Shown piece after piece: positions 8,745 to 23,584 of a stretch of DNA of 64,000 nt. A model generated the notes under the pieces. That model was not told where the DNA came from. It did not search any database and was given only the letters and a program-made list of their open reading frames with translations. The stretch is from assembly GCA_003142795.1 (NCBI GenBank), contig PLNN01000017.1, positions 512-64,511 on the forward strand, read 5' to 3'. Source of the stretch: Candidatus Omnitrophota bacterium (GTDB lineage Bacteria; Omnitrophota; Gorgyraeia; 2-01-FULL-45-10). The position numbers were made by a program, and so were the translations under genes. The stretch's first letter is position 1; each line of letters starts with the position of its first letter.

Positions 8745-8746
8745 AA

Positions 8747-9439
8747 CTATCGCTCTTTTCTCTGTAAGATCTTGTAAAGATATGAATTTTTTTCTCTGCG
8801 CTTCATCACATCTCGCACCATCAGCATATTGTCATACTGAACTCTTTTGAACTCTACAAGATCCGAATCAATATCAATTATCGCATACGACGCACTATTA
8901 TAGTCCCGCGGCTGGCCGATCGATCCGGGGTTTATAATTCTTAATCTGCCTATCTTCCTGTCCATTGGATAATGAGTATGCCCCAATATCACAAACCGAT
9001 ATGGCAATCGGCTGAACCTATCAAGGCAGTCTTGAGGATATACGTATTCCTCTAAATAGTTCCAGGGACTCCCATGAAACATCCCTATGTTAAAATCGTC
9101 TAAAACATTCACTTTAGGCAACGCCCTTAAAAAGGATATGTTTTCTTCAGTTATATATTTCTTCAAAAGGCGCGAAGAATTTCCATAAGCTTCACTATAT
9201 TCCTTTTCTAATTTTGGATCATCGAGCATTTTGAGAAATATATCATCATGATTACCCGCTACACAATAAAGATTCTTCTCGTTTTTGAGAATATCGATGA
9301 TCTCATTCTGATAATAATAATATCCGCAAATATCGCCGACAAAACAATACAGATCACACGTTTCGGCGATTAGAGATCTCCACGCTTTCTCGAAAGCGTA
9401 AATATTCCCATGTACATCCCCGAATATACCTATTTTCAT
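8747..9439 (-). CDS. calcineurin-like metallophosphoesterase
   Basis: 230 aa. GDVHGN, GDxxD and GNHD metal-binding motifs. Confidence 0.7.
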   Translation of the reverse strand: MKIGIFGDVHGNIYAFEKAWRSLIAETCDLYCFVGDICGYYYYQNEIIDILKNEKNLYCVAGNHDDIFLKMLDDPKLEKEYSEAYGNSSRLLKKYITEENISFLRALPKVNVLDDFNIGMFHGSPWNYLEEYVYPQDCLDRFSRLPYRFVILGHTHYPMDRKIGRLRIINPGSIGQPRDYNSASYAIIDIDSDLVEFKRVQYDNMLMVRDVMKRREKNSYLYKILQRKER

Positions 9440-9445
9440 ATCTAT

Positions 9446-10300
9446 TCACCGTGGCTGTAGATACAGAACGGTACTCCTGCCTATGCCGCATTGATACAAA
9501 ATAGAATAAAATTTTGAAAGCAAATCCGGTTCATAGCAACGCAGAATGCGCTCCATATTAACAACCTTCTTAAAACTCGCCCTCCCCAGAGACTTGCGTT
9601 TGAGATAATCATCGCCCATCAGAAGAAACATTTCCATAGGAAAAGAACTTTCGCCGCGCAAGATGGTATATCCCGCCTTTTTTACCAAATTGCGGATTCC
9701 TTCTTTATCGAAATAATTAACGTGGTCGGGTAGCGCGATCCAATATGGCGTTAAATTATGTTCCTTTATATAGGCTAATTGGAATGGGTTGAATTCATTC
9801 GGCACCTCAACCATAACTATTCCGTTCTTTGCAATATTACTTTTCAAGCGTTGTAAAAATCCAAGTGCATCCGGAATGTGCTCTAAGATATAGGCGACAT
9901 TTACGACATCCCATCTCTTTTTAGAAAACTTTTGAAAAAATTCTTTTATAGAGATTTGATAGATTGAGATGCCCTTGGACGTCGCGATAGCAGCGGCTTT
10001 TTTGTTTAACTCGGTTCCCGTGCATTTCCACCCTTCTTTCTTGAAGTATTCAAGCTGCGCACCTTCCCAACACCCTATATCGAGTATGCTCCCACACGAT
10101 TTCCATTTTTTTATGCTTCTGACTTTTTCTCTCCATAGGTTGCTCGGCGTGCTTCTTCGATAAACATATTCATAAAATTTTTCCAATTCCTCCTCGCTAT
10201 ACATAGGAGATATGTGAGCATACCCGCATTTCTTACAAAAAATAACTTTACGATCTCTCTTCGTCAGAAGGAGCTCTCCCCGGCATTCTCCTTTCATCAT
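9446..10300 (-). CDS. class I SAM methyltransferase with N-terminal zinc ribbon
   Basis: 284 aa. CKKCGYAH Cys pair at the N-terminus; LDIGCWEG SAM motif. Confidence 0.6.
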   Translation of the reverse strand: MMKGECRGELLLTKRDRKVIFCKKCGYAHISPMYSEEELEKFYEYVYRRSTPSNLWREKVRSIKKWKSCGSILDIGCWEGAQLEYFKKEGWKCTGTELNKKAAAIATSKGISIYQISIKEFFQKFSKKRWDVVNVAYILEHIPDALGFLQRLKSNIAKNGIVMVEVPNEFNPFQLAYIKEHNLTPYWIALPDHVNYFDKEGIRNLVKKAGYTILRGESSFPMEMFLLMGDDYLKRKSLGRASFKKVVNMERILRCYEPDLLSKFYSILYQCGIGRSTVLYLQPR

Positions 10301-11352
10301 ATGTCACCTCGGGTTATTATAGCGCCATTTCTTCTATTTCTTTTCAGCGTTTTACCAATGACGCTATCAATCTCGACCGGATGTATGAAATCACAATGAA
10401 TCCCGATATTGCGCAAGGCTATCAGATCATCGGCATTTACAATCTGCCCCTTAGAAAGATCTTTCTTCGCGTAGAGACAGCGCTTATAAAAATAGAGCTC
10501 TTTTTCACAATCAAAAATCCTTCTCTTGCGAAATATATGTAATGCGCTTTCTGCCTGACGTATGGCCGTCACCATGCAACGAAACTCATCCGGCTCGAGG
10601 GCATAGATATGATCCGGCCCCGGAAGTTTTTTGCTTAATGTGATATGTTTTTCGATGACTCTTGCGCCTAGCGCCACTGATACTGTAGGGGCGATGATCG
10701 GATCAGCGGTATGGTCGGAATATCCAACGTTTATATTATACCGTGCACGAAAATATGGTATAACGCTCAGAAACGTTTCTTTGATCGGCGCAGGATATTT
10801 TGCGATACAATGCATAAGAACCGTTTTTTCTTCATAACCAAGGAGTATCTTGGTTATCATCATATCAATTTCTTCTTCAGTGCTTCCGCCTGTCGAAATA
10901 AAGAGTGGTTTTCCTGTTTTTTTCACTTCTTCTATAAGCTCCGAAAACATAGACTCGTAAGAAGCTATCTTAAACACATTGACATAAGGATTAATTACCT
11001 TTACGGCCTTCACGTCAAAAGGGGTTGCCATAAATTCTATGCCGCTTTTTTTCGCATATCTATAAAGTTCATCGATCCATTCGTAAGGAACCTCGTTTCT
11101 CTCGATTATGCTATAGAGACTATCGTTGATTCCCATATTTTTTAAATATCGTACCTTTATATGCTTATCCGGATACATAGTCTTCGCGCGGAATATCTGG
11201 AATTTTACCGCATCCGCCCCGGCATCGCGGGCAATGTCAATTAATTGCTTCGCCTGTCGCAAGGAGCCGTTATGATTTGAGCCCACCTCGGCTATTATAA
11301 AACACGGGGACTCATCACTTATTATCTTCCTACCAACGCGTATCTTATGCAT
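10297..11352 (-). CDS. pseI: NeuB-family nonulosonic acid synthase (pseudaminic acid synthase-like) with C-terminal SAF domain
   Basis: 351 aa. N-terminal FIIAEVGSNHNGSL..AKQLIDIA..GADAVKFQ is the NeuB/PseI/LegI hallmark. Context with pseB, pseC and pseG supports the call. Confidence 0.75.
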   Translation of the reverse strand: MHKIRVGRKIISDESPCFIIAEVGSNHNGSLRQAKQLIDIARDAGADAVKFQIFRAKTMYPDKHIKVRYLKNMGINDSLYSIIERNEVPYEWIDELYRYAKKSGIEFMATPFDVKAVKVINPYVNVFKIASYESMFSELIEEVKKTGKPLFISTGGSTEEEIDMMITKILLGYEEKTVLMHCIAKYPAPIKETFLSVIPYFRARYNINVGYSDHTADPIIAPTVSVALGARVIEKHITLSKKLPGPDHIYALEPDEFRCMVTAIRQAESALHIFRKRRIFDCEKELYFYKRCLYAKKDLSKGQIVNADDLIALRNIGIHCDFIHPVEIDSVIGKTLKRNRRNGAIITRGDI

Positions 11353-11384
11353 ACCGCATGGTCCTATGCTCGTTTATTCTCATT

Positions 11385-12461
11385 TTAAAATCTCCTTCTA
11401 TATATATATGCTAATATTTTTTTTACAGCCCTATGAACGCCGCGGCCATCGACTATTTTTTTTCCTCTCCGGCACCTCTCCGATCGCAGCTTCTTATCAA
11501 AGATGACAAGATCTAATTTCGCCTTCAACTTTTTCATGATTTTGTCGTTACTGCCTCTATCGCCTTTATAGCACCCCACATGCTCGATAACGCCGGCGCG
11601 CGAGAGAGCCCTGGAATGCCGCATTTGATTCTCTGCAACGGTTATGACTATAGAAGGAACTCCCATTCTGGCAAGCTCGTACAATGTCTGGCCACCTGCC
11701 GAGATCGTAATATCGGACTTGATCATTAGTTCTTTCATGGTATCGGCGTTCGGATCATAGATAAACCTTGTATTCTCGTCTCCACAGTTTTTTAATTTAT
11801 TTGCGTACTTAAAACCCCTGCTTATAACGACATCTTTGTTCAGGCCGGGATACTTATGAGCAAGTAATTTCAAAACTTTCGGCGTCACATTCATTGGATC
11901 GCAACCACCAAAAGTCACAAGCACGGTCTTGACATGTTTACGTATACGCTTCCGGGGAGCATCTAAAAACTCTTTTCTTAAGGGCGCATATCTGCTGCCA
12001 AGCAAATAAAAAACTCCATCTCTTTCTGGATACTCAATCTTTTCTGCGTAAGCAGCGCTATTTATCACGACGCCGGGAGGGTAATTTATACGCATATTAT
12101 CATCTATATAGACCGGCAGCTTCGCTATAATAGATATTTTCTTATAAAAATTAAGGTCAGCGAGATAAGAATCCACAAGGATAATGTCCATTTCTCGCGC
12201 GGTTTTCAATACTTCCGTCCTTGCCTTTAACCAGTTCAGTATCTTATACCGCTTTGATCTTAACATTCCTTTTACGCTGTCATCACCGCACACAATGATA
12301 TCTGGCTTTATACCCTTTTCTTCAAAGGCATGATAAAAAGCAAGGCATCTGGTGATATGCCCATATCCAATACTTTTCCCGCCTTCTGTTAATATCAATG
12401 CTTTCATTTTATCTCTTATTTTTATCGATCTACACAATGTCGGAAGAACCGGCTTCACCAT
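11385..12461 (-). CDS. pseG: PseG-like UDP-sugar hydrolase (GT-B fold, UDP-2,4-diacetamido-trideoxy-altropyranose hydrolase family)
   Basis: The ORF as tracked runs to 12578 and overlaps pseC by 124 nt. Internal Met candidates (MVKPV or MKALILTEGG) give a non-overlapping start. The KALILTEGGKSIGYGHITRCL N-terminus is PseG-like. Confidence 0.5.
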   Translation of the reverse strand: MVKPVLPTLCRSIKIRDKMKALILTEGGKSIGYGHITRCLAFYHAFEEKGIKPDIIVCGDDSVKGMLRSKRYKILNWLKARTEVLKTAREMDIILVDSYLADLNFYKKISIIAKLPVYIDDNMRINYPPGVVINSAAYAEKIEYPERDGVFYLLGSRYAPLRKEFLDAPRKRIRKHVKTVLVTFGGCDPMNVTPKVLKLLAHKYPGLNKDVVISRGFKYANKLKNCGDENTRFIYDPNADTMKELMIKSDITISAGGQTLYELARMGVPSIVITVAENQMRHSRALSRAGVIEHVGCYKGDRGSNDKIMKKLKAKLDLVIFDKKLRSERCRRGKKIVDGRGVHRAVKKILAYIYRRRF

Positions 12462-13615
12462 CCGGCCCCGAAGAAACCGGCTATTTTTTTCACAACATAA
12501 TCTATTTCCCTCTCTCGTATCGCGGGATACATAGGAATGCTGATCTCGCCTCCATAAAATTCTTCCGCTTTCCGGCAAAGCCCTTTAGCATATCCGAGCT
12601 GTTTATAGTATGGCTGGAGATAGACCGGGATGTAATGCACTTGAGCGCCTATACCAGAAGCCCGCAAAATATTAAAAAGAGGGGTCCTGTCCTTCGGATC
12701 CCTCGTTCTTATGCAATAAATATGATATGATGAACTAACATACGACCGCTCGACGGGCAATAGTATATCTTCGATGCCGCATAATTTTTTATTATACGTC
12801 TCGGCGATCTGGCGTCTTCTTATAACAAAAGTATTTAACTTTTTCAGCTGACTTAAGCCCAGCGCGCTCTGGATATCTGTTATACGATAATTAAAGCCTA
12901 AGCACTGCATTTCGTAGTACCAAGAGCCGGTTAAGCGCTGATCCTGGCACACGAAACGCAATCTATCCCTGCTTATCCCGTGGCTCCGCAGCATTAAAAG
13001 CTTTTCGTAAAGATCTTTTTTGTTCGTCAACACAGCCCCGCCCTCGCCCGTAGTGATACTTTTAACGGGATGAAAACTGAATATCGTCATATCGGAATAT
13101 TTGCAGGCGCCTATCTTTGAACCCTTATATTCTGCGCCCACGGCATGTGCGGCATCTTCAATAACGACAAGACCGTTTCGATCAGCTATGGCGCTTATCT
13201 CTTCCATATCGCACGGATGACCGGCAAAATGGACCGGAATGAGCGCTTTTGTCTTCTTGTGTATCTTGGTTTTTATCTCTTTAGGGTCTATGTTGATCGT
13301 GTCATGCTGCACATCGGCAAAAACCGGCCTTCCGCCGCAATATAAAACGCTATTTGCCGAAGCAAGAAACGTTATCGGAGAAGTGATAACTTCATCGCGC
13401 GCTTTTATACCGGCAGCCAAACATGCAATATGCAAAGCGGCCGTTCCGCTCGATACGGCCACGGCATATTTCGCGCCGGTATACCTGCAAAGGGCGTTTT
13501 CGAATACGTCCACATTCGGCCCCTGCGTGATATAATCCGATCTTAAAACTCTGACAACAGCATCAATGTCGTCTTGATCGATATATTGATGGCTATACGG
13601 GATAAATCTATTCAA
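12455..13615 (-). CDS. pseC: UDP-4-keto-6-deoxy-AltNAc aminotransferase (DegT/DnrJ/EryC1 family)
   Basis: 386 aa. FSFHPVKSITTGEGG PLP-lysine motif. QYIDQDDIDAVVRVLRSDYITQG N-terminus is typical of PseC. Confidence 0.8.
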   Translation of the reverse strand: MNRFIPYSHQYIDQDDIDAVVRVLRSDYITQGPNVDVFENALCRYTGAKYAVAVSSGTAALHIACLAAGIKARDEVITSPITFLASANSVLYCGGRPVFADVQHDTINIDPKEIKTKIHKKTKALIPVHFAGHPCDMEEISAIADRNGLVVIEDAAHAVGAEYKGSKIGACKYSDMTIFSFHPVKSITTGEGGAVLTNKKDLYEKLLMLRSHGISRDRLRFVCQDQRLTGSWYYEMQCLGFNYRITDIQSALGLSQLKKLNTFVIRRRQIAETYNKKLCGIEDILLPVERSYVSSSYHIYCIRTRDPKDRTPLFNILRASGIGAQVHYIPVYLQPYYKQLGYAKGLCRKAEEFYGGEISIPMYPAIREREIDYVVKKIAGFFGAGW

Positions 13616-14606
13616 TTCTTGTCCTTTCTATCATCCTTTTAATCTCAGGAACGCTCAACCATTGCTCATTCTTATCGCTACTGTATACGAATCCCTCGGG
13701 CGGGATCTTATATTTGTAATATTTACCATGGACATGCTTGCCCTCAAAGAATTCCGCAAGAATAACATACGCGCCTTTGAACATTCTTGTTTTGCGCGCC
13801 TCATCCTCCGATATTAGGGTTTCGTGCATCTTCTCTCCGGGGCGTATCCCTATTATTTTGAATCTGCACCGCGGCTCAATCGCCCTGGCCAGATCCGTTA
13901 TTTTCATCGACGGTATCTTCGGGATAAAGACCTCTCCGCCCACGGATTCCTTCAGGGCCTTCATGACTAAATTCACCCCCTGCTCCAGAGTTATCCAGAA
14001 ACGCGTCATGCGTTCATCGGTTATAGAAAACTCCAGATTCTTCTGCCTTTTACATTCGAGGAATAGGGGTATGACGCTTCCTCTTGAGCCGACAACGTTC
14101 CCGTATCTTACAGCTGAAAATTTGACACGACCGCCCGCATAAGCGTTTGCGGCTATGAATATCTTTTCGGCAGCTAATTTTGTGGCACCATACAGGTTGA
14201 TGGGACTGACGGCTTTATCGCTCGATAACGCAACTACTTTCTTAACGCCTCTATCTATGGCGGCATCTACTATATTATCCGCTCCAAGGATATTGGTTTT
14301 CACAGCTTCAACTGGATTATATTCGAGGGCTGGTACCTGTTTCAATGCCGCCGCATGGACCACATAATCTACGCTTTCAAATGCCCTGTAGAGACGACTC
14401 TTATCCCGTATGTCTCCCAGGAAATATCGTATCGGATATTTAGATACCGGGAATATCTTCGCCATCTCGTGTTGCTTGAACTCATCGCGGCTTAATATGA
14501 TAACCTTTTTGGGGTGACATCTTTTGAAAACCATCTCTGTAAATTTTTTCCCGAATGAACCCGTTCCGCCAGTTATAAGAATTACTTTATTATTAAGCAT
14601 ATCCAC
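13608..14606 (-). CDS. pseB: UDP-GlcNAc 4,6-dehydratase/5-epimerase (inverting)
   Basis: 332 aa. VILITGGTGSFGKKF Rossmann motif. PseB/FlaA1-like throughout. Confidence 0.8.
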   Translation of the reverse strand: MDMLNNKVILITGGTGSFGKKFTEMVFKRCHPKKVIILSRDEFKQHEMAKIFPVSKYPIRYFLGDIRDKSRLYRAFESVDYVVHAAALKQVPALEYNPVEAVKTNILGADNIVDAAIDRGVKKVVALSSDKAVSPINLYGATKLAAEKIFIAANAYAGGRVKFSAVRYGNVVGSRGSVIPLFLECKRQKNLEFSITDERMTRFWITLEQGVNLVMKALKESVGGEVFIPKIPSMKITDLARAIEPRCRFKIIGIRPGEKMHETLISEDEARKTRMFKGAYVILAEFFEGKHVHGKYYKYKIPPEGFVYSSDKNEQWLSVPEIKRMIERTRIE

Positions 14607-14619
14607 ACGTACCTCCCTT

Positions 14620-16410
14620 TTAATTATGCGGTGCCCCTGATCCGCTTCCTGTCAATACAGCTCGGAGCACGTCAATACCCCGATCGTCCGGATACTCATC
14701 AATCCTTCTTATAAGATCCTTCGGTATTTCACTCAGGACAGACATTTCGCCGTTCGATATGTCCCGTATCATCTTCAGCAGCTTATCACTCTCTTTAAAT
14801 ACCGCCTTATCTTTAAGTATCCTTGAAAAAGGATGATCAAGTTCGGCTTCATCCAGATAAAGCCCCTCGATTCCGCATATAATAGCTATAGTGGCCGAAC
14901 TGGTCATAGACTCTGTAACGACTATATCCGAAACGCCAATACATTCGATAAATGACCACTTTTTTTCGTCAATTATATGAGCGTTGCCTAGTTCTTCTAT
15001 ACGCTTTTTTATCTCAAGGAATCTATCCCTCAACTCGCGCGGAAGCTCGTGATATCGAGAAAGCTCTTTGGACTTCATGATCACGGTCAGCTTCGGCTCT
15101 TTCACAGCAAGCTCAAGCGCAGTTTTCCAAAAATTAACATAATGCTCCGCCTTAAGAACGCTTCCTCCGCCAAAACTTTCGTCAAAAAAAGTTACAACTT
15201 TTCCCACAGAATGTATCCCCATTTCCGAAAGTATATAGCTTCGCCTGAATTTGACGTTATTGATGAAGCGCTTAAAAATATAACCACTATGAATAAAAAT
15301 ATCCGACGCCTCTCTGCCGGTGAGTGCGTTGGCCGCGCCCCATGCAAAATATTTATCACAACCCAAGAAAGAAATACTATACTTTATAGAATCCGAAGAC
15401 ATATCAGACCCGTATGCCAGGTAGTATCTGGTTTTCATGTTTTGACAAACTATAGCTTCCGGAATGTGACGAGAGGAATAAAAACTATATCCTAACTCAG
15501 CCCCTATTTCGTAATTGGAAAATATCTTTTCGTATGGCAATGCATAAGAGATAAAATATCTTGAGATCCTTGAAAATAGGGAGAAGTTGGCAGAGCTTAT
15601 CTCGGCCGATAACGAACCCATCCCGCCCACCAGATAAAGAGGGATCACCCTGAAAAAGAAAGTGGCGAAACTTATTTTTAGAGATGGCAGGTAAAAAGTG
15701 TTAAACCGCAACATTTTTGCTTGCTGGTATGCCTTGTTCCGTTGTTCACATTGTTTAATATCTTTCCGCGAAAATAATAATAGGTCGTCTTTCTTTATGC
15801 TCTTTTCATCAACTAAAAAATCATCATGGAAATAATATCCTCCCGTAGGATAAAAGCCCCAGACCAATTCGCGCATAACCTTATATTTTTTCTTTGCCCT
15901 AAAAATAGCAATACCGCTATTCAGGCTAAAATACAGAACAAACAGGGCTTGAAAGAAAATCACAAAAATACATGATATCGTGTTCCTTCGCCTGACCCAT
16001 TTAATTTTCGGGATAATCTTGAATCTTGAAGAGAATTTTTCGAAAGCATATCTATTGATAGGATTATCATCCAGAACAAGCCGCCCGCTCTTAATTAAGT
16101 CATCTCTCGAAAAGCTATCCATGGCATTCAATAGGTCTATCATGTATTCGCAGATCCATTTTTTTAATAGACTATCAAATCGTTTCGTTTTAAAAACGGA
16201 ATTCATGCCTTTAATAAAAGCGGAGTCGCACAGTCTATTTTCTTGAACGAACGCTTCCACTAGACCTACTATATCAGAGCGGATCCAGTCGAAATGTTCG
16301 CGCCCATTTTGCAAGGGAATATCGATATCTTTCTCGCAATGGAATGTGCGATCGCCTAATAATGCCTGACTTATATAATTTTTTATTAACTTTTTAATTG
16401 ACGTTTTCAT
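14620..16410 (-). CDS. uncharacterised large protein, candidate GT-B-type glycosyl/phosphoglycosyl transferase (capsule-synthesis/TagF-like C-terminal region)
   Basis: 596 aa. Central hydrophobic segment. C-terminal VVTESMTSSATIAIICGIEGLYL resembles the nucleotide-binding SS motif region of TagF/KpsS-type enzymes. Confidence 0.3.
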   Translation of the reverse strand: MKTSIKKLIKNYISQALLGDRTFHCEKDIDIPLQNGREHFDWIRSDIVGLVEAFVQENRLCDSAFIKGMNSVFKTKRFDSLLKKWICEYMIDLLNAMDSFSRDDLIKSGRLVLDDNPINRYAFEKFSSRFKIIPKIKWVRRRNTISCIFVIFFQALFVLYFSLNSGIAIFRAKKKYKVMRELVWGFYPTGGYYFHDDFLVDEKSIKKDDLLLFSRKDIKQCEQRNKAYQQAKMLRFNTFYLPSLKISFATFFFRVIPLYLVGGMGSLSAEISSANFSLFSRISRYFISYALPYEKIFSNYEIGAELGYSFYSSRHIPEAIVCQNMKTRYYLAYGSDMSSDSIKYSISFLGCDKYFAWGAANALTGREASDIFIHSGYIFKRFINNVKFRRSYILSEMGIHSVGKVVTFFDESFGGGSVLKAEHYVNFWKTALELAVKEPKLTVIMKSKELSRYHELPRELRDRFLEIKKRIEELGNAHIIDEKKWSFIECIGVSDIVVTESMTSSATIAIICGIEGLYLDEAELDHPFSRILKDKAVFKESDKLLKMIRDISNGEMSVLSEIPKDLIRRIDEYPDDRGIDVLRAVLTGSGSGAPHN

Positions 16411-17608
16411 ATTGCCTTTTAGTAAGCGCTAAATTCTTGATACGATTTGAAAATATTTGCCAAAAAGGTAATTCTTCCGTATTGTCTTTTTTTATAAAAG
16501 CATTTTTATATGCTCTGTACGCCTTTTCATCTATCGTCATTTCTTTTTTAAAGTCTATTTCGAGCATTTCGTCGACATTTATTACGCCCTTCCCCAGGAA
16601 AGATGCCATTTGCCGTATCCACTCCCCCTGGAGGCTCCTTTGCAAGCTGTCCGTTGTAATGAATATCACCGGTTTTTTCTCTAATACCGCGTAATTGATA
16701 GACGTACTGCAATGGCCTATCACAAAAGACGCCCTTCTGATCAGCTCCATGGTCTTACCTTTAACGACGTGTCTTCCGCCAAAATAATCCGGATGATCTT
16801 CATATCGAGATCGCGGATAAGCAGCTATGGTTATATTCGTTCTATTCGCATCTTCCAAATGATCGAAAAACCTCCTTATAGGCGGATAATATTCCTCCGG
16901 CGTTGAAAACGGCGGCACTTTCATCATTGGATAGTGCGGATGAAAAGGAACATATTCATCTATGAAAACGCCCATCTTATTATCGATTTCTACGGTGTTT
17001 TTTATTTCCTCAAGATAAATGTCATAGTCTAGTGCGTGTATAAACAGCAATTCTGTCTGAGAACCAACCATATCTCTACGATCATTCGCGCGATATGCTC
17101 CTCCAATCAATACGAAACTTGCGGGATTTATGCCTAATATTTTATGGGGCACGCGGCAAAATAACGATTGTTTCAATGCTTCTATATCGCGCGTCTTTCT
17201 TAATATATTCAAAATGGCTTCCATAATAGAACCATTTTTCTTTATACTGAATGGTAACACGCTAGAGATGACACAATACATGATCTGCTTTTTGGAAATT
17301 GCCCGGAATAAAGAATATGAATTCACTCTATACTGTATGAGACATACCACCAGAACATCTTGTGTCAATTTGTAAATTTTTTCAAGCGCATCTTGCATTT
17401 TTTGAAATTCAAAATAGTGCTCATAGTAAACTATGTCGGCACCCTTCACATCCTCCACCACGCCTGGATACAAAAAAGGAGTGCAGTTCCACACCTCAAC
17501 CTCAAACCCGTTACTTCTTAAAACATCGATGCCAAACCTTTTATAATCCCGTTCATAAAATGACGTTTCAGTAATAAAAACTATTTTTTTGATTATACAT
17601 TTGTCCAT
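16394..17608 (-). CDS. uncharacterised protein with HP motif and TagF/sialyltransferase-like C-terminal region (candidate nonulosonic-acid transferase)
   Basis: 404 aa. VPFHPHYP and VIGHCSTSINYAVLEKKPVIF resemble the HP and S-S motifs of CMP-sugar-dependent GT-B transferases. Confidence 0.3.
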   Translation of the reverse strand: MDKCIIKKIVFITETSFYERDYKRFGIDVLRSNGFEVEVWNCTPFLYPGVVEDVKGADIVYYEHYFEFQKMQDALEKIYKLTQDVLVVCLIQYRVNSYSLFRAISKKQIMYCVISSVLPFSIKKNGSIMEAILNILRKTRDIEALKQSLFCRVPHKILGINPASFVLIGGAYRANDRRDMVGSQTELLFIHALDYDIYLEEIKNTVEIDNKMGVFIDEYVPFHPHYPMMKVPPFSTPEEYYPPIRRFFDHLEDANRTNITIAAYPRSRYEDHPDYFGGRHVVKGKTMELIRRASFVIGHCSTSINYAVLEKKPVIFITTDSLQRSLQGEWIRQMASFLGKGVINVDEMLEIDFKKEMTIDEKAYRAYKNAFIKKDNTEELPFWQIFSNRIKNLALTKRQYENVN

Positions 17609-17620
17609 TTTAGAGAGGAC

Positions 17621-18616
17621 CTATCTTTTATACAAACCCAGATATGATAGAATTATCTTTGTCATGCACTTAAGTTTTTCTATTTTAAAACGATTGATCA
17701 TCGTACCATAGTGGCCATCGATCCGGGGGCATGACGATACATCAGAATGTGTAAAAGTTCCGAACATATGGACCTCTTGAGCTGCTCCGATCTTAATAGA
17801 CTTCAATCCAGCCTTTGCACAATAATATTCAAATGTTAACGGGGTAAAATAATAGACATGTGCATTTTGCAATTGACCTATGCCGAAGTTCATGATGTTC
17901 GGGACCCCTATATATAAAAGGCCTGATTTATCCAGGTGGCGGATGATTTTCTTTAATGATTCCACCGGATCGGGGAAATGCTCCAGCGCGTGATTAATGA
18001 TTATAATGTCATACAACCCTTTGATATCGTCGATACTGCCCTGCTTCATATTTAAGCCGTGTCGATTACCCATATTGACAAGGCTTTCGCTGTAATCTAT
18101 CCCGACAACGGCCGCGCCTGCGTTGGCGAATAACACAAGGTTCCACCCTCCGCCGGCGCCTACCTCCAGCACAGACACGGTAGGATCTACGGTCCTGATA
18201 CCGGAGATCTCGTCAAATATATGCCGGCTATGCCGTGGCTCATATCTATCTTCATAGGTTATCAGGTAGTCCTCGCCTTCATAACAGAGTCTGTACATAT
18301 CCGAAGAATAGAACTTAGCATACTCCTTATCAGTCATCCTGGGGTTAGACTGGATAAGTCCGCACCGGACGCACATAATGGTCTTCTGCCGCATTGAATG
18401 CCTGTCTACGCTTGCTATCAGATCGAACTCTAAAGAACCGCATAGACAATTGACCGATTCAAACTCTATAAGGCCCTGCTCGGCCTTACGGTTAAACTCA
18501 ACTACAAGCTCCGACTGTCTCGGTGAAAGTCTCATAAATGAGCTTTCGGGGTTATGAAAATACTTGAAAGGCAGCAAGGTTCGCCGTATCTTTATATTGT
18601 TTTTGCTATTTTTCAT
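17621..18616 (-). CDS. class I SAM methyltransferase with N-terminal Cys4 zinc ribbon
   Basis: 331 aa. CLCGS..CVRCG; VLEVGAGGGWN motif I. Confidence 0.6.
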   Translation of the reverse strand: MKNSKNNIKIRRTLLPFKYFHNPESSFMRLSPRQSELVVEFNRKAEQGLIEFESVNCLCGSLEFDLIASVDRHSMRQKTIMCVRCGLIQSNPRMTDKEYAKFYSSDMYRLCYEGEDYLITYEDRYEPRHSRHIFDEISGIRTVDPTVSVLEVGAGGGWNLVLFANAGAAVVGIDYSESLVNMGNRHGLNMKQGSIDDIKGLYDIIIINHALEHFPDPVESLKKIIRHLDKSGLLYIGVPNIMNFGIGQLQNAHVYYFTPLTFEYYCAKAGLKSIKIGAAQEVHMFGTFTHSDVSSCPRIDGHYGTMINRFKIEKLKCMTKIILSYLGLYKR

Positions 18617-19298
18617 TAATCCCAGTCCCGAGAACCATCAATTCAACAGACCATCTGAAGAATTTGACTTTTGTCATATTGGTAAGCCTCCGCGCATTAG
18701 GCACGGATAACACCATTTGAAGAAAATTTGAGAACATCTTCAAAGACGGATAATGCCATAAAATCGGCATCTGATAAAAAAACTCTGTCTTCACCTCAGA
18801 AAATCCATATATAGTCAATAAATCCGAAAGGGCCCTTATATTATACGGCCTGGAATGCGTAAAATCTTCGTAAAAGACCTTCATCTGACTGACCCAATCC
18901 GGAGTCAGAATAATAACTCTGCCTCCCGGCTTCAAAACTCTGCAGGTTTCTTTCATTAAATGATCCGGGTTGCTAAAATGCTCGAGTACGGATTTGTGGT
19001 AGACTACGTCAAAAGCACTATCATCATACGGAAGCTTATCTTCTGAGATATCCAGGCATACAACATTAAGATGAGGCATATTCTTGGTACAATGGTCACT
19101 CGCATCTACCCCGTAACAGCTAAGGCCCAAGTCATGAAATGCCTCTAGAAAATCTCCTCGCCCGCATCCGATTTCCAGCAGTTTTGAACTCCTGCTCATG
19201 TTAAATCGACTTACCAGGTATGAGGCCAATTTAAAAGGATAGTTGCTTTTTGGCGCTCTATTTCGGTCATATACAACGGATACGTAATCTTTTTTCAT
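18606..19298 (-). CDS. class I SAM methyltransferase
   Basis: 230 aa. LLEIGCGRGDF motif I. Confidence 0.6.
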   Translation of the reverse strand: MKKDYVSVVYDRNRAPKSNYPFKLASYLVSRFNMSRSSKLLEIGCGRGDFLEAFHDLGLSCYGVDASDHCTKNMPHLNVVCLDISEDKLPYDDSAFDVVYHKSVLEHFSNPDHLMKETCRVLKPGGRVIILTPDWVSQMKVFYEDFTHSRPYNIRALSDLLTIYGFSEVKTEFFYQMPILWHYPSLKMFSNFLQMVLSVPNARRLTNMTKVKFFRWSVELMVLGTGINEK

Positions 19299-19729
19299 CT
19301 TCCCTCAGTCACTTCAACGAGTTCTATAAAAACTCCGTCCGGGTCCATGCAAAACGCTATCTTAGCGTATCCATCCGGAGATAACTTCGGCGATGAAACG
19401 AAATCAACGCCTTCCCCCAGAAGCCTCTTATACTCTTTCTCTATATCATCCACGGTAAAAGCTATGTGCGATAGCCCAATGTCATGCAGCTTTTTTTCGA
19501 CTCCCCGATTGGGATGAGAATGAAAATATAAAAGCTCAATAAGATTACCGTTATCCGTGGCCATCTTTACCGTTGTAAGCCTGGAATCCCGTAGACCACA
19601 CACCTTGTCGATATAGCCACTCGATTCGTCTGAACGCTTGGCTATCTTTAAGCCGAGAAGTTCTCCGTAAAAATATACAGCTTTTTCCAGATCCGATACC
19701 ACTATCCCGGCGTGACGCATGGCTTTCAT
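19295..19729 (-). CDS. VOC-family (glyoxalase/bleomycin-resistance/epimerase-like) protein
   Basis: 144 aa. MRHAGIVVSDLEKAVYFY..LGL N-terminus is typical of a VOC beta-alpha-beta-beta-beta module. Confidence 0.6.
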   Translation of the reverse strand: MKAMRHAGIVVSDLEKAVYFYGELLGLKIAKRSDESSGYIDKVCGLRDSRLTTVKMATDNGNLIELLYFHSHPNRGVEKKLHDIGLSHIAFTVDDIEKEYKRLLGEGVDFVSSPKLSPDGYAKIAFCMDPDGVFIELVEVTEGR

Positions 19730-21135
19730 TGGATGGACTCCCTTTCGATCTCAGCGACAGACTCCTCGAGCGCCGTTATGCCGTCGAAGAGCGCAGCGTC
19801 CGGAATGGTTAGGGGGGGGCCGATCTTTATGGATTCTCTGCCCGTATGCACTAACAACAAGCCCTTCTGCATAGCCCTTTCGCATACCATACTTGGAAAG
19901 ATGCAGTCCGGAGATCCGGTTTTCGGATCTTTAAACAACATGGCCGCCAGGAGTCCCTTCCCAAAAACATATGACACTCTATGCGGATATTTTTCTTTTA
20001 TCCTGTTCAGCTCTCTATGCAATATAATCCCTTTTCGCGCGGATTCTTTTACAAGATCCTTCGATTCGATAACCTGCAGGTTTGCAAACGCGGCAGCACA
20101 GCAAAGGGGATTCGCAGAATGAGTACTGCTCATAGAACCCATATCCGGCAGATCCATTATATTCCTGCGCCCTATTATAGCGGACAGCGGTAGCGAACCG
20201 CTTATGCCCTTACCAAGGCATACGAGATCGGGCTCCACCCCGTAATGCTGATACGCGAATAATTTACCGGTCCTGCCAAATCCGCCCTGAATATCATCGA
20301 ACGTAATGAGACAATCGTGCTCTTTCGCGAATACCGCGAGCATTTTTACGTAAGGTACCGGAAAGAATAATGCTCCCCAGCCCATATAAGATTCCAAAAT
20401 AAAACCGGCTATTTTCCTGAAATCGAGGCCCTTTTTCTTTAATGACACCATGTCATCGGCAAAGCGCTTTTCCCATACACCTCTACTTATTCTGCCATTG
20501 GAGCCTGATCCGATAAGCCAGGGATAAGGGAATGGCATATTGAAAATATTCGGGTCTCTATAGCCGATCCACGCGGAAGAATCGGTATCACCTTTAAGCA
20601 TTTCGGCGGCCATGGTTCGGCCATGCATGGACCCTTTGAAAGATATAACCGCGACTTTCGATTTATTGATAGTTTGACCGCGCATTCTCATGAGCTTGAC
20701 GGCACATTCCGTAGCCTCTGTCCCTGCAGACAATAGGAATGCTTTATTAAGATGCTTTGGTGCGATCTCTACCAATTTTTGCAGGAACCTTGCGCGAGGC
20801 TTATTGGCAAATGTGTAAGTATGGAGCAATTCTTTATCCAGCTGCTTACGAAGCGCGGATATGATATCCTCGTTTGCGTGGCCTGTATTGGTAACAAATA
20901 TCGTTGATGTAAAATCTATCCAGCAATTCCCATAAGGATCATAGACTTGAAAATCCTTTGCCCTGTCCCAGACCACGGGCAATTGGCCATGCATCGATCT
21001 TGACTCGTATTTTCCAAGTTTGTCGAATATCCTGGAAGACCCCGGAGGAGGGATCCTTGTCCTTATTTTTCTATATTTGGAATCGATCAACGGGACTCTT
21101 TTCGGTTCCTGACAAAATTTGAATCCTGACATCAC
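19726..21135 (-). CDS. class III (GSA-aminomutase-like) PLP-dependent aminotransferase
   Basis: 469 aa. Fold-type I class III signature regions (VTNTGHANEDI, LSAGTEATECAVKL, DDIQGGFGRTG). Confidence 0.7.
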   Translation of the reverse strand: MMSGFKFCQEPKRVPLIDSKYRKIRTRIPPPGSSRIFDKLGKYESRSMHGQLPVVWDRAKDFQVYDPYGNCWIDFTSTIFVTNTGHANEDIISALRKQLDKELLHTYTFANKPRARFLQKLVEIAPKHLNKAFLLSAGTEATECAVKLMRMRGQTINKSKVAVISFKGSMHGRTMAAEMLKGDTDSSAWIGYRDPNIFNMPFPYPWLIGSGSNGRISRGVWEKRFADDMVSLKKKGLDFRKIAGFILESYMGWGALFFPVPYVKMLAVFAKEHDCLITFDDIQGGFGRTGKLFAYQHYGVEPDLVCLGKGISGSLPLSAIIGRRNIMDLPDMGSMSSTHSANPLCCAAAFANLQVIESKDLVKESARKGIILHRELNRIKEKYPHRVSYVFGKGLLAAMLFKDPKTGSPDCIFPSMVCERAMQKGLLLVHTGRESIKIGPPLTIPDAALFDGITALEESVAEIERESIQ

Positions 21136-21890
21136 TATCTCCCTTTTACTGAACCGGCCATTAGTTCTTTGTAAAGACTGCCGGGCGACCTGCCTATCTG
21201 ATACTCCAGATAGTTAAAATCTTCAATCGTATCCACTTCGGCCACTCTTGGCGTAACAAATCCGAGTATACGCGGGCCATGAAGTCTATTATTTTTTTTC
21301 ACATAATCCGTTCTTATTATATCCACATAACCGTTCGGATGATAGGCTGTGGCAAAAGCCTGCCTCGGAAGGTTATAATATTCAGGGCGTGGGTCATCAG
21401 GAAAGATCCCGGTCAGGTACCCCTGGCTATTTATCCGGAACATCTTTTCCGGAGCTTCAGGCAATTCATGGACCGATCTCAGCGATGTTGCCTCGCCTGA
21501 ATTAAGAATAGCGCTTATGGCATTTTCCATGACCGTGGACTCGCGAAGAGGCGTCGTGGGCCTGATATGTACCAGTAATTCCGGAGAACGCCCTTCGTGC
21601 TCGACAAACCAATTGATCGCATGCAATACAAACTCTATATCCCCCGACAAGTCCCCTGCGAGTTCTTTCGGCCGCATGAAAGGTACCTCGGCGCCGTAAG
21701 TCTTGGAGATCTGCGCTATCTCTTCGGAATCCGTAGATACTACCGTCCTATCTATCTTGCCGCAGATACGGCATGCAATTATTGAATATGCGATGAGCGG
21801 ATGCCCGCCAAGAGTTTTTATATTCTTTCCCAGAACACCTTTTGAGCCGCCTCGCGCCGGTATTATAGCCACGATATTTTGCTTAGACAC
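21135..21890 (-). CDS. NeuA-like acylneuraminate cytidylyltransferase (CMP-sugar synthetase, copy 3)
   Basis: 251 aa. VAIIPARGGSKGVLGKNIK motif. Confidence 0.7.
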   Translation of the reverse strand: MSKQNIVAIIPARGGSKGVLGKNIKTLGGHPLIAYSIIACRICGKIDRTVVSTDSEEIAQISKTYGAEVPFMRPKELAGDLSGDIEFVLHAINWFVEHEGRSPELLVHIRPTTPLRESTVMENAISAILNSGEATSLRSVHELPEAPEKMFRINSQGYLTGIFPDDPRPEYYNLPRQAFATAYHPNGYVDIIRTDYVKKNNRLHGPRILGFVTPRVAEVDTIEDFNYLEYQIGRSPGSLYKELMAGSVKGR

Positions 21891-21905
21891 GTCTTCTCCT
21901 TATTA

Positions 21906-22703
21906 TCAGGGTGAGGTCGGCACTCCCCAGAAATGGCAGTATGAACAGAGAGGGACCATATCCCTTTTACCCTGCTTGTGGTATTCAAGCCACTCCAGGC
22001 GCTTATCGCCGTTCCATATGTCCTCTAGAGACTGCTCATGCAGGTTCCCGATGACGCCCAGCTTCTTCGGGTCAAAACGCACGCATATGGACACATTGCC
22101 TTCCCGGCTTATACACAAATGCCCCAGGAGATCCCAGCATATCCCAACCTCCGGTATAGTAGGGCTTCTCTTGCTATAAGCGAAACTGCCCATCTTGGCA
22201 TGGAGCACGCGCTTTATTATCAGGGCTCCGAGTTTTTCATACTTAGATGGATCCACATCTCCTATTAATCGCAGGCTTGTAAAAGGCTTTTTGTCACCCT
22301 TGATACTTAAAAATTCTTTTATGACCTCAAACTGCTCGGGAGCTTCTTCATCATTTTCAAACACAGAGATTGATATCGTATCAAGGTTGTCAATGATCTC
22401 ATCCGCTTTTTCCACTATTAATTTACCGTTCGTGACGATATTCTTTATCTGATCTTTAAACAAGCTTACGGCTTCACCAAAACGCGGATATAACAAAGCC
22501 TCGCCGTCCTTGTGAAACTGCACGATTATGTTGGGAGGTAATTGACCTGATATCTTGCGAACAAGCTCAAAATCCATATCGCCATAATCCATGGCGAGCT
22601 CGGGATAATCCTTATCCACCTTGCGCCGGCCGCACATCCAGCATTTCTTGTTGCACCTGGAGGTCAGTTCTACATTAACGCACCCCAACCCGTAAAGTTT
22701 CAT
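21906..22703 (-). CDS. radical SAM/SPASM-type enzyme
   Basis: 265 aa. CNKKCWMCGRR radical SAM motif. C-terminal Cys cluster (CVRFD..CSYCHFWG). Confidence 0.6.
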   Translation of the reverse strand: MKLYGLGCVNVELTSRCNKKCWMCGRRKVDKDYPELAMDYGDMDFELVRKISGQLPPNIIVQFHKDGEALLYPRFGEAVSLFKDQIKNIVTNGKLIVEKADEIIDNLDTISISVFENDEEAPEQFEVIKEFLSIKGDKKPFTSLRLIGDVDPSKYEKLGALIIKRVLHAKMGSFAYSKRSPTIPEVGICWDLLGHLCISREGNVSICVRFDPKKLGVIGNLHEQSLEDIWNGDKRLEWLEYHKQGKRDMVPLCSYCHFWGVPTSP

Positions 22704-23584
22704 GCGACTTTAGCTCCTACCCTTCTAAGCTTCTTCATGATAGGGATCTCGCTATCGTATATCTTGATCTGCCCATCACCCTTAGCGGCTTCCCAATTCC
22801 TTATGTCAGCAACTAATCTGTTCAAGCCTTGTGGTTCAACTGACGCAGCCTGATCGCTGCCCCACATGGATCTGTCCAACGTTATATGGCGTTCCACAAT
22901 GCAAGCGCCCAGAACAACAGCCGCATATGTAGTATAAAGACCTACTTCATGACCGGAATACCCTATAGGAATGTCGTACCTCTCCATGAGCGTCTCTATA
23001 CCCTTCAGATTAAGCTCTTCGGTCTTAGATGGGTATGTGCTCGTGCAATGCATGATGATAAGGTTGTCAATCCCTACAACCCCCACTGCGTGATCGATTA
23101 TATTCATATCACTCATGCCGGTAGAAATGATAATAGGCTTCTTCTGCTTTCTGCAATATCTCAACAGGTTATCGTCCGTGATAGACGGTGAGGCGATCTT
23201 ATAGCACGGTGGGTCAAATTGCTTGATAAAATCCAGCGACTTTTCGTCCCAACATGACACAAACCAGGTAATTCCTTTTGATTTACAATAAGCGTCAATC
23301 TCTTTATATTCTTTTAATCCGAATTCCAATCCACGCTTCAAGTCACCATTCGTTGGTCCGAAAGGGTTTTCCCGCGGCTTTGCAAGCTCTTCAGCCGTAT
23401 AGACTACATCGACCGTCCGCTTCTGGAACTTAACGGCATCGCACCCGAATTTTACGGCAACATCGATCAGCTGCTTAGCCATGTCCAATGACCCATTATG
23501 ATTTATCCCTATCTCCGCTACAATATAACAAGGAAAATCATTACCTATTACGCTATTCCCGATCTTTACCGTCTTCCTGGACAT
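22700..23584 (-). CDS. NeuB-like sugar-PEP condensing synthase, short form apparently lacking the SAF domain
   Basis: 294 aa. FPCYIVAEIGINHNGSLDMAKQLIDVAVKFGCDAVKFQ NeuB hallmark. About 55 aa shorter than the pseI-like copy. Confidence 0.65.
   Translation of the reverse strand: MSRKTVKIGNSVIGNDFPCYIVAEIGINHNGSLDMAKQLIDVAVKFGCDAVKFQKRTVDVVYTAEELAKPRENPFGPTNGDLKRGLEFGLKEYKEIDAYCKSKGITWFVSCWDEKSLDFIKQFDPPCYKIASPSITDDNLLRYCRKQKKPIIISTGMSDMNIIDHAVGVVGIDNLIIMHCTSTYPSKTEELNLKGIETLMERYDIPIGYSGHEVGLYTTYAAVVLGACIVERHITLDRSMWGSDQAASVEPQGLNRLVADIRNWEAAKGDGQIKIYDSEIPIMKKLRRVGAKVA

Follow-up and report, generated by a model that had tools for sequence, protein, structure and literature searches.

Two neighbouring genes of a Candidatus Omnitrophota bacterium probably encode soluble or peripheral cytoplasmic transferases of the glycosyltransferase B (GT-B) fold that use a nonulosonic acid activated with cytidine monophosphate (CMP) as donor. 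They lie in a 64,000-nucleotide (nt) stretch of contig PLNN01000017.1, the whole of which is called the window here, and their products are 596 and 404 amino acids (aa) long; we refer to the family of the 596-aa protein as A1 and to that of the 404-aa protein as A2. A donor of this kind is suggested by the position of the genes in their operon, by the fusion of A1 proteins to cytidylyltransferases, and by neighbourhood statistics. A first-pass annotation of the window had picked out the pair as the best candidates for transferring a CMP-activated sugar, and GT-B models, linkage to nonulosonic-acid genes, gene fusions, and weak links to a Tannerella transferase (BFO_1060) all speak for that choice.

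The biosynthetic pathways of pseudaminic acid (Pse) and legionaminic acid (Leg) are well mapped, but the same cannot be said of the enzymes that attach the two sugars. Few characterised or genetically supported transferases are found in the literature, namely Maf and FlmG (flagellins), KpsS1 (GT118), and the BFO_1060 type of Tannerella. Enzymes of the proposed kind, GT-B transferases whose donor is a CMP-activated acidic sugar, have precedents; what is new is two families that have neither a Pfam model in the copy searched nor a characterised member. The window adds two families: one, large and unnamed, accompanies nonulosonic-acid genes in bacteria and archaea, and the other has its place within pse operons and is often joined to the activating enzyme. 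If the assignment is correct, thousands of "hypothetical proteins" could be re-annotated, new CAZy families would probably be defined, as happened with KpsS1 (GT118) and KrkA (GT140), and enzymes would be at hand for chemo-enzymatic synthesis of Pse and Leg glycoconjugates. CMP-Pse5Ac7Ac and CMP-Leg5Ac7Ac are accessible by enzymatic synthesis, which makes the transferase claim directly testable.

Family relations and predicted fold

Both open reading frames stand between pseB and the methyltransferase genes, as first annotated, with their flanks confirmed by Pfam. They are real genes rather than chance frames, since A1 has 98 listed homologues and A2 has 161 (word-indexed search), with E-values down to 1e-263 and 1e-215, respectively. 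Neither product had been given a clear family, and the searches agree: a Pfam scan of both window proteins gave no meaningful match, NCBIfam gave one sub-threshold match, and PDB sequence searches with single sequences (phmmer) and with family profiles returned nothing below E = 0.08 for either protein or family. A tblastn search of plasmids yielded nothing useful for either protein. The proteins are not orphans, however. The A1 homologues share 36-67% identity and derive, where the source is named, from Omnitrophota, Margulisiibacteriota/WOR-1, Elusimicrobiota, and Thermoanaerobaculaceae, the nearest relatives being Omnitrophota metagenome-assembled genomes (MAGs). The A2 family is much larger: an exhaustive comparison of its profile with 1.84 billion representatives found 4,760 clusters (50% identity) at E ≤ 1e-3, of which 2,648 reach E ≤ 1e-30. 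On contigs chosen to represent one genome per species, A2 occurs in archaea (Methanoperedens, Methanolobus, Methanoregula, other Methanomicrobiales, Thermoplasmatales, and Woesearchaeota) and in bacteria (Syntrophales, other Deltaproteobacteria, Omnitrophota, Elusimicrobia, Planctomycetales, the cyanobacteria Raphidiopsis and Prochlorococcus, Pelagibacteraceae (SAR11), Syntrophomonas wolfei, Magnetospirillum, Spirochaetia, and others). Some A1 homologues (P0026, P0038, P0049, P0054, and others) carry the precomputed tag PF27878.1, which is absent from the Pfam copy searched; a newer Pfam release may already have a model for the A1 family (PF27878).

Conservation counts and member-by-member scans were made on 68 A1 and 92 A2 sequences (160 in all). 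The single NCBIfam match was that of the 596-aa protein to TIGR04417 ("polysaccharide biosynthesis PFTS motif protein"; 522 positions, curated cutoff 100 bits), at 24.9 bits over the C-terminal 105 positions and residues 418-528 of the protein. The same model is matched sub-threshold by 57 of the 68 A1 members (best E 8e-11) and by the A1 consensus (35.6 bits), compared with 187-246 bits for true TIGR04417 members in related loci. In profile comparisons, A1 aligns with TIGR04417-type proteins over residues 178-594 (391 aligned columns; hhalign probability 99.3%, E 3.5e-20), and the A1 profile matches the true TIGR04417 member in locus L027 (hmmsearch, E 7e-19). Homology extends over the whole GT-B core, with K-x-K and [F/M]-T-S motifs at the same places. 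Given a score of 24.9 bits against a cutoff of 100, and a best member E of 8e-11, we regard A1 as a sister family of TIGR04417 and not as a member of it. True TIGR04417 proteins, about 640-660 aa long, are found in the same kind of nonulosonic-acid loci; the family name says nothing on function, and a literature search on "PFTS motif" found no paper.

The 404-aa protein has its relatives elsewhere. Some A2 members match the NCBIfam models TIGR04372 (7/92), TIGR04331 ("LIC12162 family transferase"; 6/92), and TIGR04326 (the LIC13510 family; 3/92), all Leptospira-type surface-carbohydrate families and all far below the cutoffs. Aligned with TIGR04326-type proteins (hhalign 83%, E 8.6e-6, residues 255-396), the A2 C-terminal lobe has its H-P and Ser-rich motifs in register, IAA(H/Y)PRS being paired with I-K-x-H-P and H-x-S-T-S with S-S-S; the TIGR04326 proteins are about 600-675 aa long and have a different N-terminal part. 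The two window proteins are not mutually homologous by this measure (hhalign 11%, not significant), nor does A1 align significantly with TIGR04326-type proteins (0.4%), and we therefore take A1 and A2 as separate lineages with analogous motif layouts. Judged by sequence, the unnamed or name-only GT-B proteins of nonulosonic-acid loci fall into two lineages, A1 with TIGR04417 (K-x-K and [F/M]-T-S) and A2 with TIGR04326 (H-P and S-[S/T]-S).

Both lineages may be tied by thin threads to a relative with genetic support. The model NF046086 ("BFO_1060 family glycosyltransferase"; cutoff 200 bits) is matched by two of the 68 A1 members (E 1.9e-5) and, weakly, by two of the TIGR04417- and TIGR04326-type neighbour proteins; as the link rests on these four sequences, we treat it as a weak lead. 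Sequence tests of membership in established families failed for TIGR04417 and BFO_1060, as described, and equally for the four families with which the first-pass annotation had proposed comparison (GT52, GT38, GT107, and TagF) and for Maf. No match to the Pfam models Glyphos_transf (TagF/TagB) or Capsule_synth (KpsS/KpsC/KpsS1; GT107/GT118) was found in the window proteins or in the 160 family members, and none to Glyco_transf_52 and A-2_8-polyST (GT52/GT38) or MptE-like/DUF115 (PF01973, Maf) in the window proteins.

The fold is more informative. AlphaFold2 models built on family alignments were of high confidence for both the 404-aa protein (predicted local distance difference test (pLDDT) 92.0, predicted template modelling score (pTM) 0.90) and the 596-aa protein (pLDDT 90.4, pTM 0.90). 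Each shows two lobes of alternating strand and helix, and a Foldseek search of PDB gave probability 1.0 to many GT-B enzymes, with target template modelling (TM) scores up to 0.62; the matches include UDP-N-acetylglucosamine (UDP-GlcNAc) 2-epimerases, GT1 natural-product transferases, PseG, trehalose-6-phosphate synthases (GT20), and TagF. TagF is among the best by TM-score (query/target 0.50/0.50 for the 404-aa model and 0.42/0.57 for the 596-aa model). On these models both proteins belong to the GT-B superfamily. The first-pass annotation had named a non-glycosyltransferase fold, or strong homology to unrelated families, as what would count against its proposal; the analysis brought up neither. 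Residues invariant in the N-terminal lobe of the 596-aa protein are E181, D196, Y259, E294, E318, G358, and K380. No conserved transmembrane helix was found in either family. Membrane anchoring through the hydrophobic helix at residues 142-160 of the window 596-aa protein was considered and rejected, because the family as a whole does not keep this helix hydrophobic (mean hydropathy 1.11), and A2 has no such helix.

Linkage and fusion to nonulosonic-acid genes

The 596-aa gene starts, with ATG, within the final codons of the 404-aa gene (17-nt overlap), and a strong AAGGGAGG ribosome-binding site directly follows the 596-aa stop codon, ahead of the GTG start of pseB; the two genes and pseB thus form one tight operon. 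Downstream are the further pse genes, and upstream is a second set that includes a NeuB-like synthase and a cytidylyltransferase (Table 1). In total the window has three cytidylyltransferases (1067-1819, 7026-7748, and 21135-21890) and two NeuB genes, from which it follows that at least two CMP-activated acids are made, each in need of a transferase.

Among 38 metagenome loci sampled for A1 context, the A1 gene is on the strand of the pse genes in every one. It lies upstream of pseG and pseI and, at 16 of the 21 loci where pseC was seen, within 200 bp downstream of pseC (median gap 4 bp). Two gene orders recur, A2-pseB-pseC-A1-pseG-pseI and A2-A1-pseB-pseC-pseG-pseI, the second being that of the window, and both are also present in annotated MAG loci (L001-L003). 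A quarter of the A1 homologues (25/98; about 765-845 aa) consist of an A1 domain (residues 1 to ~570) followed by a C-terminal CTP_transf_3 cytidylyltransferase. In Candidatus Gorgyraea atricola (L002) the operon reads pseB-pseC-[A1::cytidylyltransferase]-pseG-pseI-pseH, and because the fused domain is the sole cytidylyltransferase inside it and occupies the PseF position, we consider it the PseF equivalent of that operon. Fusion to the CMP-activating enzyme at this position is the strongest single argument for a predicted action of A1 on CMP-Pse. Of the three window cytidylyltransferases, that at 7026-7748 is the most frequent match to the A1-fused domains, but a weak one. In another locus (L113, 10001-~13500), a 1,172-aa open frame starts with an A1 domain and is possibly a triple fusion.

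The A2 family has a wider but comparable setting. In 59 of 61 loci of at least 15 kb, again one genome per species, A2 has a NeuB-like or CTP_transf_3-like gene no further than 10 kb away, and both are found in 47. Other neighbours are Epimerase_2 (NeuC/LegG-type) genes (33/61), pseB-like dehydratases (35/61), and DegT-type aminotransferases (37/61), and most A2-linked genes are on the same strand and upstream of A2. NeuB genes are rare in genomes, so the linkage is most unlikely to be one of chance. A clear example is that of the archaeon Methanococcoides burtonii, where the A2 gene (ABE52496.1, "hypothetical protein") stands after a complete legionaminic-type set (cytidylyltransferase, NeuB with SAF domain, Epimerase_2, PglD-like acetyltransferase, DegT aminotransferase, and dehydratase) and before a Wzx-like flippase.

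A2 is itself found in fusions. In two relatives it is joined to a homologue of the 331-aa methyltransferase encoded next to it in the window (BLASTP: P0101, 68% identity, E 5e-150; P0225, 46%, E 2e-90). The methyltransferase is therefore probably a functional partner of the 404-aa protein, and such fusions suggest that methylation is coupled to the transfer step.

The association of the two families is uneven. A2 is present in 14 of the 17 A1 loci that have at least 4 kb of upstream sequence, and strict A1 genes (E ≤ 1e-20) occur in 7 of 80 A2-centred loci; at a looser E ≤ 1e-5, A1 matches are found in 10 of the 61 large A2 loci, some of them TIGR04417-type paralogues. Since A1 almost always comes with A2 and the reverse is seen in about 12% of loci, the two may act in sequence.

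Other large proteins (548-681 aa) are encoded in nonulosonic-acid loci (L005, 18055-20082; L027, 13110-15080; L028, 6767-8680; L064, 11175-13088; L004, 18524-20170). Those of L004 and L005 are without a precomputed Pfam domain, and several are full members of TIGR04326 or TIGR04417: L027 (657 aa, 245.6 bits), L028, and L064 have TIGR04417 members in A1 or A2 loci, and L005 has a TIGR04326 member (675 aa, 253.3 bits) in the same locus as an A2 gene. A 548-aa protein of M. burtonii matched no NCBIfam model. There seems to be one such large protein per cytidylyltransferase in each locus.

Conserved motifs and competing functions

The conserved residues of the C-terminal lobe are at strand ends in both families (Table 1). 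The first-pass annotation had noted an SS-containing Rossmann-like segment at the end of each protein. Both segments, VVTESMTSSATI and VIGHCSTSINYAV, are present and conserved and belong to the C-terminal Rossmann-like domain, but they lie about 100 residues before the C-termini. In the models they form strand-to-helix turns (strand 496-500 and helix 504-511 in the 596-aa protein, strand 295-298 and helix 304-309 in the 404-aa protein). S504 is conserved in 66 and S505 in 63 of the 68 A1 sequences, within a consensus T-Q-G-M-T-S-S (499-505) after the fourth strand; the corresponding A2 counts, out of 92, are 89 for H299, 88 for S301, 79 for T302, and 88 for N305.

The motif VPFHPHYP of the 404-aa protein had been taken for an HP motif of the catalytic type. 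It exists and is conserved (H223 in 89/92, P224 in 75/92), but the HP that corresponds to K-x-H-P of related families is that of residues 264-265, where the consensus is IAAHPRS (H264 in 88/92, P265 in 92/92); this pair aligns with K-x-H-P of TIGR04326-type proteins and precedes the Ser-rich turn by ~37 residues, and H223-P224, which follows the first strand of the C-terminal domain, is a separate motif. Just ahead of it, F215 is invariant and D217 is found in 91 of 92 sequences (consensus F-[IL]-D-E-Y, then P-F-H-P). An HP pair of the 596-aa protein, in D-H-P-F, had been overlooked; the A1 family thus has K-P-K plus a separate H526-P527. Its K-S-K site lies where related families have K-x-H-P, a correspondence drawn from non-significant alignments.

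In the mechanism that we propose, three elements of the C-terminal Rossmann lobe would bind the CMP moiety: an acidic turn after the first strand (FFDE in A1, FIDEY in A2), a basic or His/Tyr-Pro turn after the second (K-S/P-K and AA-H/Y-P-R-S), and a Ser/Thr-rich turn after the fourth (M-T-S-S and H-x-S-T-S). The acceptor would sit in the N-terminal lobe; it is probably a lipid-linked oligosaccharide of the Wzx-type island, for later export by Wzx or the ATP-binding cassette (ABC) system, and the reaction would have CMP as its leaving group. The 596-aa protein would transfer the Pse derivative made by the enzymes of the adjacent pseB-pseC-pseG-pseI genes. The 404-aa protein would transfer the product of the upstream NeuB-like/cytidylyltransferase module, probably together with the neighbouring methyltransferase, and A2 relatives elsewhere would transfer a legionaminic-type acid.

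A wider proposal can be offered tentatively, at somewhat less than even chances. A1 and A2 may be two new GT families for sialic-acid-like sugars, A2 being a widespread legionaminic or nonulosonic acid transferase of methanogenic archaea, Syntrophales, Omnitrophota, SAR11, and cyanobacteria, and A1 a Pse transferase often fused to CMP-Pse synthetase, which would couple activation and transfer. The 596-aa protein may then add Pse onto a residue set by the 404-aa protein, giving a di-nonulosonate cap.

Several results pull against a CMP-nonulosonate donor. Both families are uncharacterised, and their function is one that we infer. The lowest Foldseek E-values are those of UDP-GlcNAc 2-epimerases and not of sialyltransferases or transferases of 3-deoxy-D-manno-oct-2-ulosonic acid (Kdo), and no GT52, GT38, GT80, GT99, or GT107 structure is in the top 50 for either model. 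At the sequence level, Pfam GT52 is matched by four of 92 A2 members (E 0.045) and GT38 by one (E about 0.05), all sub-threshold; a TIGR04326-type profile run against PDB gives KpsC chains as its best matches, not significantly (E 0.33); and NF046086 is not matched by either window protein, by the family consensus sequences, or by six divergent members. The failure of A1 and A2 to align with each other belongs here as well. Finally, the window proteins depart from the motifs of their own families, with Y264 for His, K-S-K for K-P-K, and T-E-S for T-Q-G. The two departures of the 596-aa protein are partly common to its closest relatives. Tyr264, which also occurs in the 80%-identical relative P0100, is a real departure from the A2 family. 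In CstII-type sialyltransferases, which are unrelated, the CMP phosphate is contacted by tyrosines; Tyr264 need not mean lost function, because its hydroxyl could still hydrogen-bond a phosphate.

The pair could instead be ordinary glycosyltransferases of the same glycan with UDP-, GDP-, or dTDP-sugar donors, for example adding the residue to which the nonulosonic acid is later attached. No fold is commoner than GT-B among transferases that use nucleoside diphosphate (NDP) sugars, the top Foldseek matches include GT1, GT20, and UDP-binding epimerases, and the window has several NDP-sugar pathways. We nonetheless think such donors unlikely: Pfam models of the GT1, GT4, or GT28 type, which detect other GT-B enzymes of the window, do not match these two; a CTP_transf_3 fusion and a place in the middle of a pse operon would be hard to explain; and the linkage to NeuB and cytidylyltransferase genes holds over very different glycan loci and domains of life.

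More doubtful is a biosynthetic role, in which one or both proteins, as nucleotide-sugar hydrolases or as 2-epimerases of the hydrolysing kind, for example, would release a hexose for a NeuB-type synthase and so be analogues of PseG, NeuC, or LegG. The epimerases that head the Foldseek results fit this idea, as does PseG at rank 16 for the 404-aa model, and two of 92 A2 members match Epimerase_2 in Pfam (E 0.14). For the second NeuB-like gene of the window, this role could fall to the 404-aa protein, there being no Epimerase_2 among the window genes scanned (1-43 kb). In the larger sample, though, a bona fide Epimerase_2 co-occurs with A2 in more than half of the loci, the A2 relative of M. 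burtonii sits beside a complete legionaminic-type set, and a true PseG-like gene co-occurs with A1 in the window and in L002; with genuine PseG or Epimerase_2 genes alongside, replacement of PseG or NeuC by these proteins was judged unlikely. The H-P and S-T-S motifs, moreover, are ones that we take to resemble those of CMP/CDP-dependent transferases rather than epimerase catalytic residues.

Least probable is that the proteins are TagF/TagB-like phosphotransferases moving a polyol- or sugar-phosphate from a CDP-activated donor to give a phosphodiester-linked decoration: TagF scores well for both models, the layout of an acidic turn, a K/H-P turn, and a T/S-S turn presumably resembles the motifs of the TagF family, and the Tannerella enzymes were first flagged as TagB-like (PMC5420450), but Glyphos_transf finds no match, the cytidylyltransferases of the loci and fusions are of the CTP_transf_3 type (NeuA/KdsB/PseF-like) with no TagD- or IspD-type enzyme among annotated neighbours, and what the loci provide is nonulosonate synthases rather than enzymes for glycerol- or ribitol-phosphate.

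Known transferases and the surrounding island

A transferase for CMP-activated nonulosonic acids, the preferred reading, has a genetically supported precedent in Tannerella forsythia. BFO_1060 is the counterpart in strain FDC 92A2 of Tanf_01245/TFUB4_00887 (Tomek et al., PMC5420450), the knockouts of which lose the terminal Pse or Leg derivative from the O-glycan (PMC5420450). These enzymes were described as GT-B/TagB-like, with D/E-D/E-G and HP motifs (PMC5420450), motifs that were functional in NmB-polyST and PmST1 as Freiberger 2007 is cited there (PMC5420450). In strain UB4 the gene for the Leg-derivative transferase and the CMP-Leg locus are separated only by a methyltransferase gene (PMC5420450), and in the window, too, a methyltransferase gene adjoins the candidate. 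The Tannerella enzymes are about 445 aa long, versus 596 and 404 aa, and the genetic support is that of Tannerella alone. In the A2 family no D/E-D/E-G motif is evident, the nearest being D217-E218-Y and D194-Y-D196, and the conserved HP pairs are H223-P224 and (H)264-P265, with Y264 in the window protein.

Among CMP-sugar enzymes of known class, the sialyl- and polysialyltransferases of GT52, GT38, and GT80 have the GT-B fold, use a CMP-nonulosonate donor, and have no requirement for a metal-binding DXD. The A1 family has K-P-K where these have H-P. In A2 the distance from H/Y264 to S301 presumably resembles the spacing of about 40 residues between H-P and S-S in the C-terminal lobe of GT80, such as that of H311 and S355-S356 in PmST1. 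KpsS/KpsC (GT107), WbbB (GT99), KpsS1 (GT118, Pse), and KrkA (GT140) are retaining enzymes with GT-B-derived folds and CMP-Kdo or CMP-Pse donors; KpsS1 and KrkA are recent, and new ulosonic-acid transferase families are still being defined from structure alone, with negligible sequence similarity (PMC12887879). The TagF/TagB CDP-glycerol glycerophosphotransferases likewise have a donor activated by a cytidine nucleotide; their likeness to the window proteins is at the level of fold only, and A1/A2 loci have no polyol-phosphate supply.

Maf (MptE-like/DUF115) and FlmG perform the same step, transferring Pse or Leg from the CMP-sugar, but onto flagellin, whereas the window genes are in a Wzx-type polysaccharide island and not in a flagellar locus. 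FlmG, like the larger window protein, is 596 aa long and has a GT-B-like C-terminal domain (PMC7591256). Identity with FlmG was rejected: the equal length is coincidental, the window protein has no TPR domain, and its GT-B core spans residues ~106-596, as against 309-596.

Table 1. Coordinates in the window of the two candidate genes, their lobes and motifs, and neighbouring genes
Feature	Coordinates	Strand	Basis
596-aa gene (A1); GT-B fold, TIGR04417 sister family, candidate CMP-Pse-dependent transferase	14620..16410	-	ORF, model, synteny, fusions
404-aa gene (A2); GT-B fold, large unnamed family, candidate transferase for second CMP-activated nonulosonic/ulosonic acid	16394..17608	-	ORF, model, neighbourhoods
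596-aa residues 1-105, N-terminal helical extension; residues 16-32 low confidence	16096..16410	-	Model; no Pfam TPR or other domain
596-aa residues ~106-398, N-terminal Rossmann-like lobe, presumed acceptor side	15217..16095	-	Model
596-aa residues ~399-540, C-terminal Rossmann-like lobe, presumed CMP-sugar side	14791..15216	-	Model; TIGR04417 match
FFDE, 596-aa residues 408-411, end of first C-lobe strand; E411 invariant	15178..15189	-	Alignment
K446-S447-K448, 596-aa, after second C-lobe strand; family consensus K-P-K, K448 invariant	15067..15075	-	Alignment
VVTESMTSSATI, 596-aa residues 497-508; PFTS/CFTS motif of TIGR04417-type proteins	14887..14922	-	Alignment, hhalign
D-H-P-F, 596-aa residues 525-528, after fifth strand; H526 invariant	14827..14838	-	Alignment
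FIDEY, 404-aa residues 215-219, first C-lobe strand	16952..16966	-	Alignment
VPFHPHYP, 404-aa residues 220-227	16928..16951	-	Alignment
IAAYPRS, 404-aa residues 261-267, after second strand; family consensus IAAHPRS	16808..16828	-	Alignment
VIGHCSTSINYAV, 404-aa residues 296-308; H-x-S-T-S 299-303 after fourth strand	16685..16723	-	Alignment
CTP_transf_3 cytidylyltransferase downstream of pse genes, likely PseF equivalent supplying CMP-Pse	7026-7748	-	Pfam
pseI (NeuB+SAF), downstream	10297-11352	-	Pfam
pseG-like, GT28-type, downstream	11385-12578	-	Pfam
pseC, downstream	12455-13615	-	Pfam
pseB (Polysacc_synt_2), downstream of the pair	13608-14606	-	Pfam
331-aa class-I methyltransferase, N-terminal CxxC...CxxC segment, directly upstream of 404-aa gene	17621-18616	-	Pfam
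Second class-I methyltransferase, upstream	18606-19298	-	Pfam
Glyoxalase-fold protein, upstream	19295-19729	-	Pfam
Class-III aminotransferase, upstream	19726-21135	-	Pfam
CTP_transf_3 cytidylyltransferase, upstream	21135-21890	-	Pfam
Radical-SAM/SPASM protein, upstream	21906-22703	-	Pfam
NeuB-like synthase without SAF domain, upstream	22700-23584	-	Pfam

As a whole the window is a surface-polysaccharide island: it encodes a Wzx-type flippase along with an ABC exporter, and, besides several GT4 enzymes and two PMT_2 (GT-C) proteins, it has more NDP-sugar enzymes and the third cytidylyltransferase. The G+C content of the two candidate genes (0.38 and 0.40) is lower than that of the window (0.446) and of the flanking pse genes (0.42-0.46).

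The set of genes upstream of the pair is a recurrent module (window 19295-23584, minus strand; L001 1227-7069, an Omnitrophota MAG; and the contig of P0209). Its parts are a short NeuB-like synthase of 283-294 aa that lacks a SAF domain, a protein of the radical-SAM/SPASM type, a CTP_transf_3 cytidylyltransferase, a class-III aminotransferase, a protein with the glyoxalase fold, and methyltransferases. In 15 of the 61 loci, A2 has a homologue of this aminotransferase nearby. The module looks like a pathway to an undescribed CMP-activated amino-ulosonic acid.

Within the Pse set, the stretch of the window from pseC to pseI (10297-13615) yielded no pseH of the GNAT type, so the N7 substituent of Pse in this organism may not be acetyl; L001 has a 498-aa acetyltransferase-containing protein at the place of pseH, and L002 a 155-aa acetyltransferase after pseI. 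The pseG-like frame as listed has a TTG start, is 397 aa long, and overlaps pseC by 124 nt, an overlap that puts the true start probably further downstream. Right after pseI and before the presumed pseF (7791-10300, minus strand) are genes for a methyltransferase, a calcineurin-like phosphoesterase (metallophosphoesterase), and an ATP-grasp ligase, which may tailor Pse, for example by methylation or by addition of an amino acid or other acyl group.

Radical-SAM genes are unusually dense in the window, with SPASM-type genes at 23-1057, 1821-2987, and 21906-22703 and a B12-binding type at 5617-7029 (minus strand). B12-radical-SAM genes are also beside A1 or A2 in L001, L003, L005, and the contig of P0209, a hint that nonulosonic acids may undergo C-methylation or some other radical tailoring. 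In L002 (17798-19528), a 576-aa protein with an HMGL-like domain and a weak MptE-like (Maf-type) domain adjoins an HpcH/HpaI aldolase, hinting at yet another activated-acid-sugar system in these loci. The two PMT_2 (ArnT/PMT-like, GT-C) membrane glycosyltransferases of the window, at 28172-29533 (minus strand) and 41854-43179 (plus strand), suggest periplasmic or outer-face transfer from a polyprenol-linked sugar.

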